This document shows positions 1-8,077 of a DNA stretch of 8,077 nt, piece after piece. The notes under the pieces were generated by a model. That model had not been told where the DNA came from and ran no database searches. It saw nothing but the letters and a program-made list of their open reading frames with translations. Made by a program: the position numbers and the translations under genes. The number at the start of each line of letters is the position of its first letter. The stretch's first letter is position 1. This DNA is from a virus (lineage: Duplodnaviria > Heunggongvirae > Uroviricota > Caudoviricetes): positions 1 through 8,077 of the IMG/VR virus record IMGVR_UViG_3300011952_000023. One strand, given 5' to 3'.

Positions 1-259
1 CAACGAGGACGCATAACTTTGACACATGCAAAACCATGCACCTGATACATGCATAGTTATTACTTTGTAAAAACATAAAAAAAGGAAATCCCATGAACAA
101 AAATCAAACTATTAATAAAAATTTTTATATCTCTTAGAACAAAAGATTCTGCTTGAACAAAGTAAACTTCTGAGGTAGATCTTTATCGTTTAGCAATATA
201 ATTCATGTTAAACAGCTTAAATATTTATACAATATCATTGGCAATGATGAGGTTTTAAA

Positions 260-1106
260 ATGGAACTTAAATTAAAGAATATAACCAGCTATAAGAAAGA
301 TAGCTTCNNNNNNNNNNGGACTACAAAGAATGCGAATGTCCTTTCATAGATACTTTTCGCCTATTGGTTTATAATACCAAGTTTGTTGAGGATAATTTTT
401 ATAATGCAAAAGAGCAAAAAGGAGTATTCACTTTAAGTAAGGAAAATGCTGACATTGAAAAAGAATTATTGGAAAAAGAAGCTATAAGACAAGACCTACT
501 TACAAAATACCAAGATAAAAAAAACGTTATTGAGCGTTTAATTAAAGATAAAAACAATAAAGAAAATGAATATATTGATTTAATATGGAATAAAGCAGAA
601 CCTTTTAGATCATCTGACTTAAAGATCTTGATGAAAGGTCAGTTAGGAAGCAAGAGATCATTTTATGAGCAAGTTAAAAAAGCCCCTCAAACCACTGACG
701 TTAATATCGAGTCACTTGCTCAAGAATATAGTATTCTTTTAAAGAACAAAGATAAATTCACTGCATCAATTACACCTTTAGAAAAATATATCATTTCAGA
801 AAAAGATAAAGAATCTTTATCCACTCCGATTATAGACTCAAGTAATAGCTATTTGTCAGAAACAATTAAACAACTTCAAAACCTTGACTGGGTGAAAAAA
901 GGGAAGGAATTATATTTAAATGGCACATGTTGCCCATTCTGCCAAGAAGACACTATTAAAGACAAATTTTTAGAAGCAATAGAATCTATCTTTGATGATA
1001 GCTACTCCAAGAAAGTTGACCAAATACGCATTATCAGATCGTCTTATGAATCCGCTACCATAGATAATTTAAAAAAAATAAAACAAGAGATTTCATCTTG
1101 TGAATT
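260..1106 (+). CDS. 5' part of a large AAA_13/RloC-like SMC/ABC-type ATPase (N-terminal strand, coiled coil, CxxC zinc-hook-like motif); interrupted by assembly gaps
   Basis: ATG at 260 with GAGG at 250-253 upstream. The first 16 codons (MELKLKNITSYKKDSF) look like the N-terminal strand of SMC/ABC ATPases. After the N run at 308-317, frame 1 is open from 319 to 1106; the track ORF 364-1131 starts at an internal TTG and its stop lies beyond the second gap, so both ends are artefacts. The sequence is K/E/N-rich as in a coiled coil. CCPFC is at 928-942. No Walker A is visible and it is presumably inside the first gap. Very AT-rich. Confidence 0.6.
308..317. other. Assembly gap (10 N) inside the cargo ATPase gene
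   Basis: Run of n; true length unknown. The reading frame differs on the two sides (frame 2 before, frame 1 after). Confidence 0.95.
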
Positions 1107-1116
1107 NNNNNNNNNN
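1107..1116. other. Assembly gap (10 N) inside the cargo ATPase gene
   Basis: Run of n; frame 1 before, frame 3 after. The apparent stop at 1129-1131 is in the wrong frame relative to the downstream open frame. Confidence 0.95.
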
Positions 1117-2375
1117 CATCATCTCATATAGCGTTATTAGAGGAAATAGCAAACAAAAACTTAAAATTGATGTTAGATAAAATTAATAACCCATCTATAT
1201 CTATTATTTTGGAATCCAATAGCGACCTTGAAGCAAAGGTAGTTGATAATATAACAGAGTACAACAATAGAATTAAAGAAATAAATATTAAAGTCAAACA
1301 ATTTAAGGATAGTGAAAAGTCTATACGTTACAAAATATGGGGAGCAATAAGAGAATTATGCAACGCTGAGTTTGAAGCTTTCTCAAAATATGAGAATGAC
1401 TATAAAATCATTTATGAACAATATCAACTTGAATTAAATGCCATAAAAGAACAAGGAAATAACAATAACAAAAAGATCAAAGAGCTACGCGATCAAATAT
1501 CTAATATTGACGCAACCATAGATTCTATAAATCAACGTCTAAAATTATTAGGAATTTATGGTTTTAGCATAAAAAAACACACTGAGAGCAATGATAAATA
1601 CATCATATCACGTTCTGAAAACACAACAGATAAAGATGTATACAGATCTCTTAGCGAGGGTGAAAAAACTTTAATTACCTTTCTCTACTTTCTAGAATGC
1701 TGTAAAGGTAAGACAGATAAGAATGATACGGATATGCGAGATGTATTTATCGTTATTGATGATCCAATATCCAGCCTCTCTCAAAATTATGTGTACGATA
1801 TTGCCTCAATAATTCACCATGAAATAATCAACAATAACAAAGCAGTAAAGAAAACATTAATACTCACACATAATCTTTATTTCTTTCATGAACTTATCAA
1901 ATTAGCTCCTAGAAGCAAAGAAGATAGAACATTCAAGCGTGATTATTATCTTGGACGAGTAACAAAAAATGAATATAGCATAATTACAGAAATAGAGAAA
2001 AAGAGCATTCAGAATGAATACCAGTCCCTATGGCAAGTATTAAAAGATGCGAAGGATGGAAGGGTAAATAAAGTTATAATACCTAACATCATGAGAAATA
2101 TACTGGAATACTACTTCGCATTTGTTCATAGAACGGATGCATTACAGACAGAGTTAAATAAACTTGCTAGCGATGATAAGAATAATGATTTTAGAGCATT
2201 TTATAGATACATTAATAGAGGTTCCCATTCAGATGCAGTTAATATCACAGACATGGGAGATATATCTCCAGAGAAATATATGGAGCAACTAAAAACCATT
2301 TTTCGTATGACTGGCGATGAAAAACATTATTTGAAAATGATGGACGAAGAGGAAGAGGAAACCGTTACCGCTTAG
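1117..2375 (+). CDS. 3' part of the same ATPase gene: ABC signature, Walker B, H-loop, then a putative HEPN-like/anticodon-nuclease-like C-terminal domain
   Basis: Frame 3 is open from the gap edge at 1117 to TAG at 2373-2375; the track ORF 1167-2375 begins at a TTG, so continuation across the gap is the simplest reading. Motifs seen: LSEGEK (1650-1667), DVFIVIDDP (Walker B/D-loop), LILTHN (H-loop-like). Downstream are RNILE (2091-2108) and RYINRGSH (2205-2228). Acidic tail DEEEEETVTA. Confidence 0.6.
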
Positions 2376-2622
2376 GCCGCATATCATCGGGTTGGGTAAG
2401 AACGACGGTGTTCACACACCGTCTCCCACTTACCGAAACGATAGCGATTGTACTGACGTACTTTCACTAACTTTAACATGAGATTATCTCCATGCCAGCA
2501 CTATTGTTGCCAATAGCAGCCTTTACACCCTTTGTATAAAGCTAATACCAAGAGCAATGCAAGGATACCCCAAGCGGTAACTGGCGTGGATTCTAGAGCA
2601 GCCTAACTAAAAAATCAAAGCA

Positions 2623-4864
2623 TTAATTAAATCCCGGCCACTCATCATTTACCGGATACCTGAAGTTTACCCCCTCATAATTTACGGTTGCCCCACGCGC
2701 CAGCGCCTCAAGCTCCCATCGCTGAGGCCTGATACCGTTATAACCAAGGTCAACGCGGATACGGGTAATTTGCATTCGTTCCGACCGGGTCAGTCTGGCC
2801 GATGGTGCAATTTCATGTGGTTTTAACGGGCTTCCGTTTCTTTGCTGACGATTTGGCATTCTCAGCCCGTGTTTTAATGCGCCCCTGAGCGCCCTCACGA
2901 CCTTCATCAACCAGGTTAAGCACTGCTGCGGCGTGCTCAGAAGGTGTGGGAGCCGGTAACGAAGTATCACCGCCGGTGAGCTTTCCACAGTTATTGACAG
3001 GACTCCGAGGCGCGGCGATGCCGCTTTTTAAAGTCAAAGGCTCAACGACCGGCACTTTCGGCACAATGCGCCAGTCCGTCGTTCTGGTGATATGAATATG
3101 ACGCGCGCCGAGATGCGGTGCGTAAATGCCGACCACTCTCTCGACCTCTTCCTCGTACTCGTTAACGTCATCCGACGGGCTACGGGCGACTCTGACAGTC
3201 TGGCAATCACGCGGAACATTTGCCCCACCCTGCGCGCTGATATACAACGCAAAATCACCACTGTCTGCGGCGGCGCGAGCAGCCTCGACGCGTTCGTCAA
3301 ACTCATCAGCAATACTGACGCCGCGAGGCAATTTGCGTAGTTCACGGTAAGCCCCCATTGTCGGCAGGCCAACCGTTTTAAATTGCGGGATACGCCACGT
3401 TGACGCCCATGCGGTAACAGCCGCTGCAGTGTCTTTCAGCGGCCTGCCGGTATCGTTATCGAGCTGACCATCCAGTGCATAGCCGTCGATGTTTTTTGAA
3501 ATGTATTTCGCGATATATCCCGCAGCACCGCCCCGGTTAAGGTGTTTTGCCTGAAAACGGCTCCGCGCAGCTCCTCTTTCGTCGCCATCCTCTTTGAGCG
3601 CGTAGCGACGCATGATTTCAATAATCTGGTTACGCTGGCGTGGATTACAAAAAAGCATCATATGCCAGTGCGGCGTTCCGTCGTGGTGTGGCTCGACGAC
3701 ACGCAAACCGTAGACCTGTAAATCATTATCCTTGAATGCCGTGCGCATCAGGCTCCAGATACGGCAGAGATAACGCTGCGCATCCTTTGGATTAAATGCC
3801 TCATCGTTCCAGCCGTGATTAAGCTGGACGGTTTTACTTTCGCCTTTTCCGACCTGACGTGTCGGGTGATACTTTGACGGCGTGGTCAGCGTGATAAACA
3901 TCCCCACATCACCCTCTGCGGCGGCGTAACGCTCAATTCCGGCAATGGTGTTCATCAGCTCCATCCGGCGAATTTCAGGATTAGAAATACTGCCCATCAC
4001 CTTACTGATAAGGTCGATGCGCTCGCCGGTTTCCCTGTTTTCAAGGTCACACGATTTAAGAAATTCCAGATTTGCCTGGCGGCGTGCACGCACATCACGA
4101 ATGGCATGTTTACTGGCATAAGGAGAACGGTCTTTATTGACCTCCCCGACAGCAATCAGTAACGCCTCATGCCAGCGCATACGCTGGCCTTTAAGCTGAT
4201 GAGTCCACCACTCATCGTTAAACAGGCGGGCAATGGCAGAATATGCCTGCCTCGTGGTCATCTGTCCTTTACGGTATTTTTTCCAGTAGAGCGGGGAAAT
4301 ATTGAAAGCACGTGCAGCGCCAGCAACATGACCATACAGGTGAGCCTGCGCCTCATCCGTAAACAGCGATTCTTTTTCGCCATGCGCATCCACCCAGGCA
4401 TCGCAGAGTTCCTCATACATCATGAAAAGCTGCGATGAGATACGGGCGGCAAACTTTTTCAGCTCCTTGTCATTCATTCCAGGCAGGCGCGCATAGTGGT
4501 CACGCTCTGCCAGAAACAGCAACGACGCGTCGGTGTTCATTTCATGGCGCTGATTCACACGTTCAATGCGCGGCCATAAACGACGCTGAAAAGTGGATGT
4601 GAGGAAATAAAACCCGTGCACCGGGCTTTTATTGCGCCGGATGTAGTCATAGCGTGAAGTAAACAGCGAACGCAAAAAGTAAGGCAGGCGGTTAATCGTA
4701 GATAAAACACCTTGCACCTGACGCATCTCGTCACGTGTAAGGGGTCTTTCGCGCCCGACAGCCTCGCGTGGCGCGTTCCATGCATAAGCACCGGTAAACG
4801 TCTTACCGGTGCCTGCAGCAAATGCTGACGGAGGGACAAAACGCCCGGAGGCTTTAACGGCCAT
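2623..4864 (-). CDS. A: Replication initiation endonuclease (P2 gene A-like rolling-circle initiator); apparent frameshift near the 3' end (possible pseudogene or sequencing error)
   Basis: Main frame runs 2813-4864. The likely start is ATG at 4864 (MAVKASGRF...); the track start at 4906 is a TTG. It contains an HUH-like motif (TPHWHMML) and paired tyrosines (GYIAKYISK) typical of rolling-circle Rep proteins. The protein-like C-terminus (VVRALRGALKHG...RIRVDLGYNGIRPQRWELEALARGATVNYEG...) is in a different frame (track ORF 2623-2988). Joined length is about 760 aa, as I recall for P2 gpA. Confidence 0.85.
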
Positions 4865-5129
4865 ATGAGCCAAAAGCCTCTGAACAACGCTTGCTGAGTT
4901 GCTCAACCTGCGCGTTTAAATCAGCAAAAGACTTTGCGCTTCCGGTCAGAATATCGTGATGCATCAGGCCGGAAACGAGCTGGCTTAATTTCGGGTAATA
5001 ACCAACCACCGCCAGCCACTCCTGACCGGCGTTTTTACCGCTTTCCGCTCTCTTTTTCTCATGGAGAATAAACTGAAAGCTGTCACTGGTAACGACATAA
5101 CGTTCGCCAATTTCTATACGAATGCTCAT
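4854..5129 (-). CDS. P2 orf83-like early protein (function unknown)
   Basis: ATG at 5129 with GGAG 6 nt upstream. Position immediately upstream of A, with an 11-bp overlap onto the A start. 91 aa. Confidence 0.7.
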   Translation of the reverse strand: MSIRIEIGERYVVTSDSFQFILHEKKRAESGKNAGQEWLAVVGYYPKLSQLVSGLMHHDILTGSAKSFADLNAQVEQLSKRCSEAFGSYGR

Positions 5130-6440: not shown

Positions 6441-6607
6441 TTCCAGACCCTCCGGCTTTTCAGAAAGGTCAGAGCCTTCTTTAACGGACTCTGTTTTTTG
6501 GTGCGGATAATGATTCCCTTGCGTCCCTTCCCGTGGGTGATGGTGAAGTCAATCGCCCTAGGGCTTTCGTTACGCAATAACTGAGCAATACAACGCGGCT
6601 CATTCAT
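6437..6607 (-). CDS. Small basic early protein (P2 orf78-like position)
   Basis: Track ORF 6437-6634 overlaps cox by 25 bp and has no SD. The internal ATG at 6607 (MNEPRC...) has GGGG upstream and leaves only a few bp between the cox stop and this start. Stop overlaps the B start (ATGA). Confidence 0.5.
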   Translation of the reverse strand: MNEPRCIAQLLRNESPRAIDFTITHGKGRKGIIIRTKKQSPLKKALTFLKSRRVWK

Positions 6608-6609
6608 AA

Positions 6610-6897
6610 TCACAACCCCATCCACAAAAGCCATGCATCACGCTGTTCAACCGGTCGGTTATAAAACGCCTCACGTACAGCGCGATTAAACTCAGGAATG
6701 AAAACCCATTTTTCACCGGCACGAGCCTTCGGTTTGCAAGGATCACGTAATTCAAGAATTGGTAATTTATTTGCCTTCACCATTTCACTGACGGCTGTCT
6801 TTGGCTTCCCTAATAAATCAGCAAATTTATCCACATGAACCGCATCCAGCGGATACTGAATCACATAATTTTCAGCGTCCATATATGGTACCCTCAT
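6610..6897 (-). CDS. cox: Cox-like excisionase / early-operon regulator
   Basis: First gene of the minus-strand operon, facing the repressor gene. About 90 aa with an N-terminal HTH-like region and a C-terminal ...RDAWLLWMGL resembling P2 Cox (...DGWLMWLGL) as recalled. Alternative start at ATG 6882 with GAGG upstream. Confidence 0.8.
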   Translation of the reverse strand: MRVPYMDAENYVIQYPLDAVHVDKFADLLGKPKTAVSEMVKANKLPILELRDPCKPKARAGEKWVFIPEFNRAVREAFYNRPVEQRDAWLLWMGL

Positions 6898-7018
6898 AGG
6901 ATCCAGCCCTTTCTAAACCACTCAAAACCGTTTAGACGCTGGTTTATTCTCAAATCAATGGAACCTATATAGGTTCCAGTTTTGAGGGAATTTAGTCCCT
7001 ATATAGGCACCATGTCAA
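6898..7018. promoter_or_regulatory. Immunity switch region between cox and C, with operator-like repeats and a candidate early promoter
   Basis: Perfect 18-bp palindrome GGAACCTATATAGGTTCC at 6960-6977. The core CCTATATAGG repeats directly at 6998-7007. A perfect TTGACA on the minus strand at 7018-7013 (candidate Pe -35) abuts the C start codon, with a weak -10 candidate around 6989-6994. Confidence 0.6.
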
Positions 7019-7312
7019 ATGAAATTAAGCGAAAAGATTAAGGCCTTGCGTGAGGCTGAAGGGCTAAGCCAATCAAAATTCTGTGAAATCATAGAGTTAC
7101 CACTAAGTACACTTAAAAAATATGAAGGAGGAAACTTTGAACCCGGTGGCACAGCTTTGCTAAAAATCACTATGCATCCCACATTCCAAAAATATGCTCT
7201 ATGGCTTATGACAGATAAAACCGCGCCGGACGCAGGACAAATCGCACCGGCTCTCGCGCACATTGGGCCAGAGTCAACAGAGTCCAACCACTCCGCGAAA
7301 AGGATTGGCTAA
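7019..7312 (+). CDS. C: P2 C-type immunity repressor
   Basis: 97 aa. N-terminal HTH-like segment and the C-terminal ...GQIAPALAHIG... match my recollection of P2 C (...GQIAPALAHFG...). Lies directly upstream of int on the same strand, as in P2. Confidence 0.85.
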   Translation: MKLSEKIKALREAEGLSQSKFCEIIELPLSTLKKYEGGNFEPGGTALLKITMHPTFQKYALWLMTDKTAPDAGQIAPALAHIGPESTESNHSAKRIG

Positions 7313-7381
7313 CTCTATATAAAGATTACATTTTCACCATTTGCTACCAAGATGGTGAATACAGCGCCGGAGGGCTTTCTT

Positions 7382-8077
7382 ATGGCAATTAAGAAGCTCG
7401 ATGATGGTCGCTATGAAGTGGACATTAGACCTCGCGGTCGCGATGGAAAACGCATCCGCAGGAAATTCGAAAGAAAAGCTGAAGCACTAGCATTTGAGCG
7501 ATACACAATCGCCAATGCCAGTCAGAAAGAATGGGGAGGCCAGCGAGCAGACCGCCGAACTTTGACAGAATTGCTCGACATCTGGTGGAAATATCACGGG
7601 CAAAACCACGAGCATGGAACAAAAGAGTTTAATCATCTGCTCNNNNNNNNNNTGATGGATTATCGTTCTATGCGACTACGTGATGGCATCAGTGCCGCAA
7701 CGATAAACCGTGACATGTACCGATTATCCGGCATGTTCACAAAATTAATTCAATTGGATGAATTTTCCGGGCAACACCCAATTCACGGACTGCCGCCACT
7801 GGCGGAGGCCAACCCTGAAATGACGTTCCTGGAAAAAGCAGAAATCGAAAAACTGTTAAATGTTTTGGCTGGTGATGACTTACTTGTCGCGCTTTTATGT
7901 CTGAGCACTGGAGGAAGATGGACGGAAGTTGCCACGCTAAAACCAGCACAGATTACAAGTTGTAGGGTTACCTTCCTGAAAACCAAAAACGGTAAAAAGC
8001 GAACGGTGCCGATTTCTGAGGAACTGGAGAAAAAAGTTAAAGAGGAGGCCAGCGCCAAATTGTTCAAGGTCGATTAT
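7382..8077 (+). CDS. int: Tyrosine integrase (P2 Int-like), 5' part; interrupted by a gap at 7642-7651 and truncated by the window edge
   Basis: ATG at 7382 with GGAGGG 8 nt upstream. N-terminus MAIKKLDDGRYEVDIRPRGRDGKRIRRKF is the P2-type Int N-terminus as I recall it. After the gap, an open frame carries ...LCLSTGGRWTEVATLK... (box I arginine region). No stop before 8077. Confidence 0.85.
   Translation, partial: MAIKKLDDGRYEVDIRPRGRDGKRIRRKFERKAEALAFERYTIANASQKEWGGQRADRRTLTELLDIWWKYHGQNHEHGTKEFNHLLXXXXMDYRSMRLRDGISAATINRDMYRLSGMFTKLIQLDEFSGQHPIHGLPPLAEANPEMTFLEKAEIEKLLNVLAGDDLLVALLCLSTGGRWTEVATLKPAQITSCRVTFLKTKNGKKRTVPISEELEKKVKEEASAKLFKVDY
7642..7651. other. Assembly gap (10 N) inside int
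   Basis: Run of n; the frame changes across it. Confidence 0.95.

Follow-up and report, generated by a model that had tools for sequence, protein, structure and literature searches.

A putative RloC-type anticodon nuclease as the single cargo of a P2-like prophage defence slot

Phage P2 carries old and tin in the slot between its portal gene gpQ and its replication gene gpA. In the stretch of viral DNA analysed here (8,077 nucleotides; the window), the gene next to gpA is a long, AT-rich reading frame interrupted by runs of N. This raises the questions of whether the frame represents one intact gene, to which family its product belongs and how such a protein might act in a slot that, in P2-like prophages, has been described as a defence hotspot flanked by gpA and gpQ and lying next to cos (Rousset et al. 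2022).

One gene behind two sequence gaps

The window contains three runs of N (308–317, 1107–1116 and 7643–7652), the first two of which are 10-N placeholders that split the frame into coding pieces at 260–307, 318–1106 and 1117–2375. Each piece is open and each lies in its own frame, so the 10-N runs cannot equal exactly 10 bases. An ungapped Escherichia coli copy encoding 739 amino acids (NZ_CP122938, locus L001, 12260–14479) aligns to all three pieces with zero indels, placing them at nucleotides 1–48, 147–935 and 962–2220 of its coding sequence. The first-pass annotation had read 260–2375 across the gaps as one gene of at least about 700 codons, and the ungapped copies, which are 99% identical to the window's gene, bear this out.

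260–2375, plus strand: rloC-type gene, 739 codons with the gaps filled; AT-rich cargo, 30% GC against 49% in the prophage backbone
249–252, plus strand: Shine–Dalgarno-like GAGG read from the sequence, 7 nt upstream of the ATG at 260; putative function
308–317: gap 1, a 10-N placeholder hiding 98 nt by the ungapped copy, residues 17–49, including the Walker A motif GHNGCGKST with K36
1107–1116: gap 2, a 10-N placeholder hiding 26 nt by the ungapped copy, residues 312–321, inside a helical insert

The hidden 98 and 26 nt, each minus 10, equal 1 modulo 3 and thereby reproduce the observed frame steps. Residues 1–16, 50–311 and 322–739 are visible in the window, giving 696 codons, all open. Across these 2,096 visible nucleotides, 20 positions differ from the references, corresponding to 13 synonymous and 7 non-synonymous codons with no stop; we count this ratio as sequence evidence of selection, which supports the RloC reading developed below. 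With 124 nt of the window's own copy hidden, its Walker A motif is presumably that of the 99%-identical copies, in which the region reads GHNGCGKSTIS.

Family assignment and domain layout

Profile searches gave two matches along the whole length of the 739-residue protein. Pfam AAA_13 (PF13166) matched with 344 bits against a cutoff of 36 (3e-102), aligning residues 16–716 to profile positions 9–712 of 713, and the PADLOC model PDLC04886 for PDC-S06 matched with 838 bits (E = 1.6e-252), aligning residues 2–732 to positions 4–725 of 727. The PADLOC model for PrrC, with 372 positions, matched residues 454–734 only (4e-14). NCBIfam gave no meaningful match, and a sequence search of the PDB chains returned nothing related, so that no solved structure of RloC or PrrC was found by sequence. 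An AlphaFold2 model (pLDDT 82) had as its best solved-structure matches Rad50 (9e-7), SMC heads, LmuB, retron ATPases and AriA. These profile and fold matches agree with the initial description of the protein as an RloC/PrrC-like ATPase of the AAA_13 type, and the family that they point to is a named and catalogued one.

The motifs expected of such a protein were located as follows.

931–942, plus strand: CPFC (C254–C257), putative zinc hook, inside a non-helical stretch of 15 residues roughly midway along the helical insert of about 370 residues
1650–1664, plus strand: ABC signature LSEGE (L499–E503); LSEGEK spans 1650–1667
1740–1763, plus strand: Walker B, DVFIVIDD (D535/D536), and after it the D-loop P537–S540; DVFIVIDDP spans 1740–1766
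1869–1871, plus strand: H-loop (switch) histidine H572 in LTHN, placed by alignments
1992–2372, plus strand: all-helical C-terminal domain, residues 613–739, putative HEPN-type anticodon nuclease
2094–2108, plus strand: RNILE with R647 and E651, counterparts of R692/E696 in GkaRloC and R320/E324 in PrrC
2205–2228, plus strand: RYINRGSH, with H691 inside an R-x6-H HEPN-like motif, counterpart of H737 in GkaRloC and H356 in PrrC

Alignments of 30 and 59 homologues, with identities down to 23–26%, show that these are not chance matches, because the key residues form invariant columns: in the set of 59, Walker A, CPFC, LSEGE, DDP, H572, N644/R647/E651 and S690/H691 are all invariant. Within the putative hook (CCPFC, C253–C257), C254, F256 and C257 do not vary among the homologues. 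All catalytic and nucleotide-binding residues visible in the window's copy are intact.

Secondary structure further shows an ATPase head split by the insert (approximately residues 90–464), with long helices at 90–141 and 403–447 and the CPFC loop at 249–263. By this secondary structure, an antiparallel coiled coil would carry CPFC at its tip. The head is followed by a helical domain of about 125 residues that carries the invariant R-x3-E...H triad of the PrrC/RloC anticodon nucleases; a HEPN fold has been ascribed to the RloC nuclease domain (Anantharaman et al. 2013) and is putative for the present protein. The annotated elements, namely an SMC/ABC ATPase head with LSEGEK, DVFIVIDDP and an H-loop, a coiled coil bearing a CxxC hook, and a C-terminal part unlike an ATPase with R-x3-E and R-x6-H motifs, were thus each recovered in place and in conserved form.

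Features expected of an RloC are the Lys of Walker A, the ABC signature, the Asp of Walker B and the switch His, a CxxC insert that splits the head and a C-terminal Arg-x3-Glu...His triad. All of these are present here, the Walker A Lys as seen in the 99%-identical copies; the length of 739 residues falls inside the published RloC size range of 658–897. Judged by its sequence, the protein is an orthologue of RloC as the family's founders defined it. A biochemically studied member of the family (Davidov & Kaufmann 2008; Klaiman et al. 2012), GkaRloC of Geobacillus kaustophilus (804 residues), has been mutated at K44, C291, D572, R692, E696 and H737. These six residues correspond by order and spacing to K36, C254, D535, R647, E651 and H691, with spacings of 247, 281, 120, 4 and 45 residues in GkaRloC against 218, 281, 112, 4 and 44 here, the last two both counted from the Arg. 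The R-to-H interval of 44 compares with 45 in GkaRloC and 36 in PrrC. The 65 residues by which the protein is shorter than GkaRloC are missing mostly between Walker A and the hook.

Closer relatives place the protein within known territory. An E. coli APEC O1 protein of 738 residues (WP_000423308) shares 65% identity over 739 residues, is colinear with one 1-residue gap and occupies the same position in a P2-like prophage, with the portal gene on one side and gpA on the other. By length, strain and flanking genes, we equate it with entry 51 of the founding orthologue table (YP_852004 from APEC O1; Davidov & Kaufmann 2008, Supplementary Table 1), for which the flanking genes are given as 'phage replication initiation, capsid'. 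The two proteins share their domain order, but the present one is a separate allele, about 35% diverged. In the P2-hotspot survey of Rousset et al. (2022), System #5, with 420 occurrences, is annotated as 'RloC-like'; over its N-terminal 399 residues, our protein diverges by about 52% from the representative of System #5, and its allele, WP_021520307, appears in the P2-hotspot list of that study (Table S5A). The first-pass annotation's remark that the protein could not be assigned to a named family, and may be an uncharacterised variant, therefore needs amending, 'uncharacterised' being apt in the experimental sense alone: it is an orthologue of RloC with its allele listed under 'RloC-like', and the family, the slot and the allele's presence in the slot are all already known from published work.

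The prophage slot and the proposed mode of action

In intact P2-like prophage copies, the interval from gpQ to gpA holds the rloC-type gene and no other gene. In the window, gpA lies directly to the right; the portal gene on the left is seen in the intact copies. One of these, locus L002, contains between the portal gene and the cargo a single exact match to the 19-mer that we take to be P2 cos. The earlier view of the gene as stand-alone cargo is therefore fitting, with the addition that its place is the old/tin hotspot of P2. No restriction–modification (R–M) gene occurs in the window or the prophage copies, and no hsd gene in the window or at loci L001–L003 and L084. Across 73 loci from other species, no partner gene is conserved, which is consistent with a self-contained switch. 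In a scan that took one genome per species, G. kaustophilus and Acinetobacter baylyi were absent from the best 80 loci.

2623–4906, minus strand: gpA, P2-type replication endonuclease, bordering the hotspot on the right; in the window it carries a frameshift near 2893
2404–2423: perfect 8-bp hairpin GACGGTGT-TCAC-ACACCGTC between the convergent rloC-type gene and gpA, from folding; no T run; putative terminator

The gpA frameshift is due to a 26-nt deletion and means that the prophage element may be decaying. A promoter and terminator scan of window positions 1–2900 gave counts equal to the shuffled expectation, so we claim no promoter; the hairpin was not among the terminators picked up. Rfam had no match in the whole window.

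We consider it likely, by analogy with the characterized family member, that this RloC orthologue is the single cargo of the prophage's defence slot and acts as a GkaRloC-like anticodon nuclease. In a lysogen, the protein would be present as a silent dimer in which the zinc-hook joint keeps the nuclease off, as in GkaRloC. DNA generated by an infecting phage, and DNA ends above all, would release this lock in concert with the head's hydrolysis of ATP, and the freed C-terminal nuclease would then cut tRNA anticodon loops and excise the wobble nucleotide. Such a lesion would be hard for phage tRNA-repair enzymes to reverse, so that translation would stop and the infection abort, and the lysogen population, hence the prophage, would be protected. 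Wobble-nucleotide excision, activation by DNA and ATP, and derepression by zinc-hook mutation have been demonstrated for GkaRloC only, and the RloC authors note that, in the natural Acinetobacter host, double-strand breaks were not enough by themselves to activate RloC. Genome surveys count RloC as a defence system, though recent ones list it as 'not tested', and in the literature we found no direct demonstration of any RloC blocking a phage, nor any experiment or direct anti-phage test on this protein, its close relatives or any enterobacterial RloC. RloC, AAA_13 and PrrC are unmentioned in the functional screen of Vassallo et al. (2022), as are RloC, PrrC and PDC-S in a 2026 paper on P2/P4 hotspots.

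Three other explanations bear on this reading. The protein might belong to the same family and be wired differently, as a HEPN RNase with a trigger or target unlike that of GkaRloC: a host type I restriction enzyme could restrain it in trans (compare PrrC and EcoprrI), or it could respond to a specific phage protein or to P2/P4 cos ends, or cut a different tRNA set or mRNA. For APEC O1, the founding table carries the remark 'encodes type I EcoK like', and its authors allow R–M control in trans; some 10–15% of relatives in other species adjoin type I R–M genes (among them Methylase_S, HSDR_N and EcoEI_R_C); identity to the relatives that one source names 'wobble nucleotide-excising tRNase' is about 26–28%; and P2 Old, from the same slot, has a reported trigger of its own (see below). 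We nevertheless regard different wiring as unlikely, given that all six GkaRloC key residues are conserved in order and with similar spacing, that the window and prophage copies are free of R–M genes and that Walker A does not end in the Arg characteristic of PrrC.

It is very unlikely that the window's copy is dead or silent cargo, broken in its hidden sequence, or kept from transcription by silencing within a decaying prophage, and without effect on the host. The open visible codons with their mostly synonymous changes, the intact catalytic and nucleotide-binding residues and the frames flanking each gap, which are those expected of an intact gene, all argue against decay; on the other side are the 124 hidden nucleotides, the damaged neighbouring gpA, the absence of any promoter-like site above chance upstream and the annotation of two coding sequences or partial cover in several E. 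coli genomes (for example H15, H59, H72, H76 and the type strain, H137). The low GC content also bears on silencing, as a 2026 preprint reports that H-NS silences AT-rich immunity loci. A role as a Rad50/SbcC-like repair or recombination ATPase that serves the phage and has no RNase activity seems barely credible. It would fit the Rad50 and SMC structural matches and the name 'DNA repair ATPase' that one source gives to a homologue (P0006), but Rad50 has nothing that corresponds to the C-terminal domain with its invariant PrrC/RloC triad, no Mre11/SbcD-type nuclease partner is encoded in the locus, and the slot is a variable accessory hotspot outside the conserved P2 replication and recombination gene set.

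The preferred reading, a GkaRloC-like anticodon nuclease, adds little as a discovery; in practice it is of value for testing. Whether RloC blocks phages, and what its physiological trigger is, could hardly be settled more easily than with a single-gene E. coli RloC on a P2-like prophage. It is also conceivable, if quite unlikely, that the prophage-borne enterobacterial clade (the APEC O1 type, PDC-S06) forms a functionally distinct RloC branch with a trigger specific to P2-type phage life. Candidate triggers include DNA ends, whether those of incoming competitors that are cos-packaged or replicate by rolling circle or those of the P4 satellite, and the tRNA target set or the regulation could differ from those of the Geobacillus enzyme. 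Should this hold, an E. coli P2 lysogen would be the first tractable natural system for the anti-phage role and trigger of RloC.

Comparison with known systems

The closest catalogue entry is PDC-S06, a single-gene PADLOC system whose model the protein matches over its full length, in keeping with a slot that holds no partner gene. PDC-S06 is a computational candidate label, mentioned in the literature that we found only within inventories, and it appears to be PADLOC's name for the RloC-type clade and not a separate biological entity. Among characterized enzymes, EcoPrrC likewise consists of an ABC ATPase fused to a C-terminal nuclease of this kind, in which Arg, Glu and His form a triad, and tRNA cleavage with abortive infection is the output expected here by analogy. 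PrrC, however, is about half the size and without a coiled-coil/zinc-hook insert. Its gene always resides in a type Ic hsd locus, by which PrrC is kept silent; the enzyme makes a nick in the anticodon loop and does not excise the wobble base; and it carries a PrrC box and, as described by Klaiman et al. (2012), a Walker A motif ending in Arg. The window's protein shows none of these PrrC-specific features, and assignment to PrrC was rejected on the absence of hsd context, the presence of the insert of about 370 residues and the GHNGCGKSTIS Walker A region.

Rad50/SbcC proteins have in common with the window's protein an ABC head interrupted by a long helical stretch that bears a CxxC hook. The insert here is much shorter than that of Rad50, and the extra 125-residue C-terminal RNase-type domain, together with the missing nuclease partner, led us to reject this assignment as well. 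ATPases of the Old, PARIS and Septu types were also rejected, as their PADLOC models gave weak N-terminal P-loop matches only. [quoted passage not shown] Its effector is a TOPRIM domain as opposed to the putatively HEPN-type PrrC/RloC domain, it has no zinc-hook insert, and beyond the weak P-loop matches no sequence match to models of the Old family was reported. The locus would allow Old and RloC to be compared as unrelated ATPase–nuclease effectors that share one prophage slot.

The defence slot of a P2-like prophage

The window corresponds to the early part of a P2-like prophage; its genes are listed here by position and strand.

260–2375, + strand: cargo gene, rloC type
2623/2813–4906, − strand: large replication endonuclease gpA
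− strand: several small early genes
6610–6897, − strand: Cox-like gene
7019–7312, + strand, right side of the window: C-type helix-turn-helix repressor
from 7382, + strand, right side of the window: integrase

GC content falls from about 49% to about 30% left of gpA, and the resulting AT-rich block contains the cargo gene. The 19-nt cohesive-end (cos) sequence of P2 has a single exact match in the LD93-1 prophage (8911–8929 of L002) and none in shuffled sequence. The portal gene and the cargo gene flank this match, which is about 72–90 nt left of window base 1, and the cargo therefore directly adjoins cos. In the intact prophages of Escherichia coli LD93-1, APEC E18006 and APEC O1, no gene other than the cargo gene separates gpQ (portal) from gpA. 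This is the locus that was defined as the P2 defence hotspot; in P2 itself, old and tin occupy it (Rousset et al. 2022). Within the window, the slot holds no second open reading frame of at least 40 amino acids (aa). Among the genes closest to 73 relatives in other species there is no conserved partner, only sporadic type I restriction–modification (R-M) parts (Methylase_S 6, HSDR_N 3, EcoEI_R_C 3) and other defence genes. The protein is therefore genetically stand-alone, as the first-pass annotation had proposed.

Several features of the surrounding prophage are recorded here. Similarity to the LD93-1 prophage ends at window position 6607 (region compared, 6608–8077), so the Cox/C-repressor/integrase module differs between two prophages that share a cargo allele, and one RloC allele thus accompanies more than one kind of immunity and integration module. 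Compared with the ETEC1701, LD93-1, APEC E18006 and APEC O1 prophages, gpA in the window lacks a clean 26-nt block at about 2893–2906; its frame ends at 2813 (ORF 2813–4906, 697 aa), and the conserved last 95 or so residues lie in another frame that runs to 2623 (ORF 2623–2988). This may mean a defective replication gene, or it may stem from misassembly. The cargo gene and gpA converge, and in the interval that separates them a perfect 8-bp hairpin (GACGGTGT-TCAC-ACACCGTC, 2404–2423), with 4 nt in its loop and no T run, may act as a bidirectional transcription stop.

Integrity and distribution of the cargo gene

The window contains three runs of exactly 10 N (308–317, 1107–1116 and 7643–7652), and the coding sequence at 260–2375 consists of three open pieces, each in a different frame, so the N runs are placeholders and not 10 real bases. 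An uninterrupted copy in ETEC1701 (L001, 12260–14479; 2,220 nt, 739 codons), annotated as an ‘AAA family ATPase’, aligns with the three pieces at nt 1–48, 147–935 and 962–2220 without a single indel, which puts 98 nt inside gap 1 and 26 nt inside gap 2. Both lengths exceed 10 by 1 modulo 3, which is the frame step observed at each gap. This gap-free E. coli copy confirms the initial reading of 260–2375 as one gene, as judged from the visible bases, with 124 nt hidden. Gap 1 spans residues 17–49, as read from the ETEC1701 comparison, and covers Walker A (GHNGCGKST), which is why the signature motif and Walker B had been listed from the sequence but no P-loop. Relative to two reference copies, the 2,096 visible bases carry 20 differences (13 synonymous and 7 non-synonymous codon changes, no stop), a pattern consistent with selective constraint. 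The third N run lies within the integrase gene, where the frame is the same on either side, unlike at the cargo-gene gaps. The ETEC1701 prophage that carries the best-matching allele (L001, 1250–16328) is rearranged: about 8 kb separates the two partial pieces of gpA, an IS3 element interrupts the integrase, and truncations affect several structural genes; its cargo gene is still intact.

Of the 5,426 complete E. coli genomes searched, 20 have the allele (at least 95% identity to window 1–2700) and 113 (2.1%) have some detectable relative, chromosomal in every case; the APEC O1 allele occurs in 44 genomes. Relatives also occur on 254 plasmids (below 60% identity) and in at least 436 species representatives from most bacterial phyla (30–42% identity). 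Among the E. coli genome matches H15/H59, H72/H111, H76/H121, H110, H136 and H137/H138, several have two ‘AAA family ATPase’ coding sequences annotated in place of the cargo gene; in others, including the type strain ATCC 11775, it is covered to 86% only, in two places. This suggests that the gene has been recurrently inactivated.

Orthology to RloC

Profile searches agree with the RloC/PrrC-like, AAA_13-type ATPase proposed at first pass: Pfam AAA_13 matches residues 16–716 (344 bits; cutoff 36), and the PADLOC model of PrrC, a related anticodon nuclease of type I R-M loci, matches residues 454–734 (4e-14). PADLOC also matches the protein over its full length to PDC-S06, a candidate single-gene system (E = 1.6e-252), an NCBIfam profile search gave no match, and a sequence search of solved structures returned none related to this protein. 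Among 5.8 billion proteins we found 88 relatives, most of 720–765 aa, whose identities grade continuously from 99% down to about 26%. The source of one of them, P0072, gives its name as ‘wobble nucleotide-excising tRNase’, and distant phage-borne Streptococcus relatives are annotated as ‘translation-disabling ACNase’.

The founding RloC paper defines the family by ABC ATPase motifs, a coiled-coil/CxxC insert that splits the head, a PrrC-type catalytic triad (R692/E696/H737 in the biochemically studied Geobacillus kaustophilus RloC, GkaRloC; R320/E324/H356 in PrrC) and a length of 658–897 aa, and all four are found in this protein. The six experimentally mutated GkaRloC residues have counterparts here in the same order and at near-identical spacing.

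Mutated GkaRloC residues and their counterparts (feature; GkaRloC; this protein)
Walker A Lys; K44; K36
Hook Cys; C291; C254
Walker B Asp; D572; D535
Triad Arg; R692; R647
Triad Glu; E696; E651
Triad His; H737; H691
Spacing, Lys to Cys; 247; 218
Spacing, Cys to Asp; 281; 281
Spacing, Asp to Arg; 120; 112
Spacing, Arg to Glu; 4; 4
Spacing, Arg to His; 45; 44

Residues invariant in alignments of both 30 and 59 members
Walker A; G30, N32, G33, G35, K36, T38
CPFC; C254, F256, C257
ABC signature; L499-S-E-G-E503
Walker B/D-loop; D535, D536, P537
Switch histidine; H572
C-terminal domain; N644, R647, E651, S690, H691, H724

An AlphaFold2 model (mean pLDDT 82) places the ABC-type head at about residues 1–80 and 465–615. 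A helical insert some 370 residues long splits the head, which is followed by an all-helical C-terminal domain. The longest insert helices span 90–141 and 403–447, and CPFC sits in a 15-residue loop (249–263) about midway. Among solved structures, the model is most similar to Rad50 (9e-7) and to SMC heads together with their coiled coils, in line with the first-pass reading, and next to the defence ATPases LmuB, retron-associated ATPases and AriA.

Two further motifs were observed. ‘HYxxMM’ near the C terminus (window 2325–2339, H724–M728) lies outside the published Arg/Glu/His triad; H724 is invariant, and Y725 (30-member alignment) and M728 (both alignments) are near-invariant, in a family reaching down to about 23% identity. 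Cys54 is kept in most close relatives within ‘YxxCxC’, right after the Walker A helix (C54-E-C56, window 475–483), and in this allele the C56-P-F that follows C54 resembles the CPFC hook motif.

The family had also been catalogued at this locus. Entry 51 of the founding orthologue table is E. coli APEC O1 YP_852004 (738 aa; flanks ‘Phage replication initiation, Capsid’), and the 738-aa AAA ATPase that occupies exactly this context in APEC O1 is 65% identical to this protein across all 739 residues, the alignment having only one gap, of one residue. In 2012, ‘E. coli APECO1 RloC’ was the founding lab's RloC exemplar. A prophage-borne ABC-HEPN group, whose prototype APECO1_4465 may be the same gene, was proposed to exclude other phages independently of R-M systems (Anantharaman et al. 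2013). AAA_13 is System #5 of the P2 hotspot (420 occurrences; ‘RloC-like’), with a representative that shares 48% identity, in colinear alignment, across the 399 residues listed for it; Table S5A of the same study holds both the APEC O1 protein and WP_021520307, the accession annotated for this allele in LD93-1 (Rousset et al. 2022). The protein is thus an orthologue of RloC in a described hotspot, its allele already tabulated, and not the unassigned variant that the first-pass annotation had allowed for.

Proposed activity and its alternatives

The architecture, the conservation of every known key RloC residue and the gene's placement on its own in a prophage defence slot are observed. By analogy with GkaRloC, a dimer would be kept inactive through its zinc-hook joint until DNA, above all linear molecules with ends, and ATP hydrolysis in the head jointly switched on the nuclease. 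The nuclease would then excise the wobble nucleotide of tRNAs, a lesion that phage tRNA-repair enzymes are expected to handle poorly, so that translation would halt and infection abort. In a P2 lysogen, this would guard the host population, and hence the prophage, against competing phages.

Two other identities were rejected: PrrC, which lacks a large helical insert such as the one present here, also on account of the missing hsd context and Walker A arginine, and Rad50/SbcC on account of the absent nuclease partner and the extra C-terminal domain. We found no published test of any RloC against phages, and one recent survey enters RloC as ‘not tested’; the RloC authors reported that double-strand breaks alone failed to activate it in Acinetobacter, its natural host. 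This leaves, as the main rival, a protein of the same family with another trigger or target.

The family, hotspot and allele are already named and catalogued; for the proposed anti-phage role and trigger of RloC, the E. coli prophage version would be a convenient test system. In the same slot, Old and Tin have been shown to protect the lysogen against competing phages, and a 2026 preprint reports that Old itself acts as an abortive tRNase; if so, the P2 slot would hold two unrelated ATPase–nuclease effectors with similar expected output.
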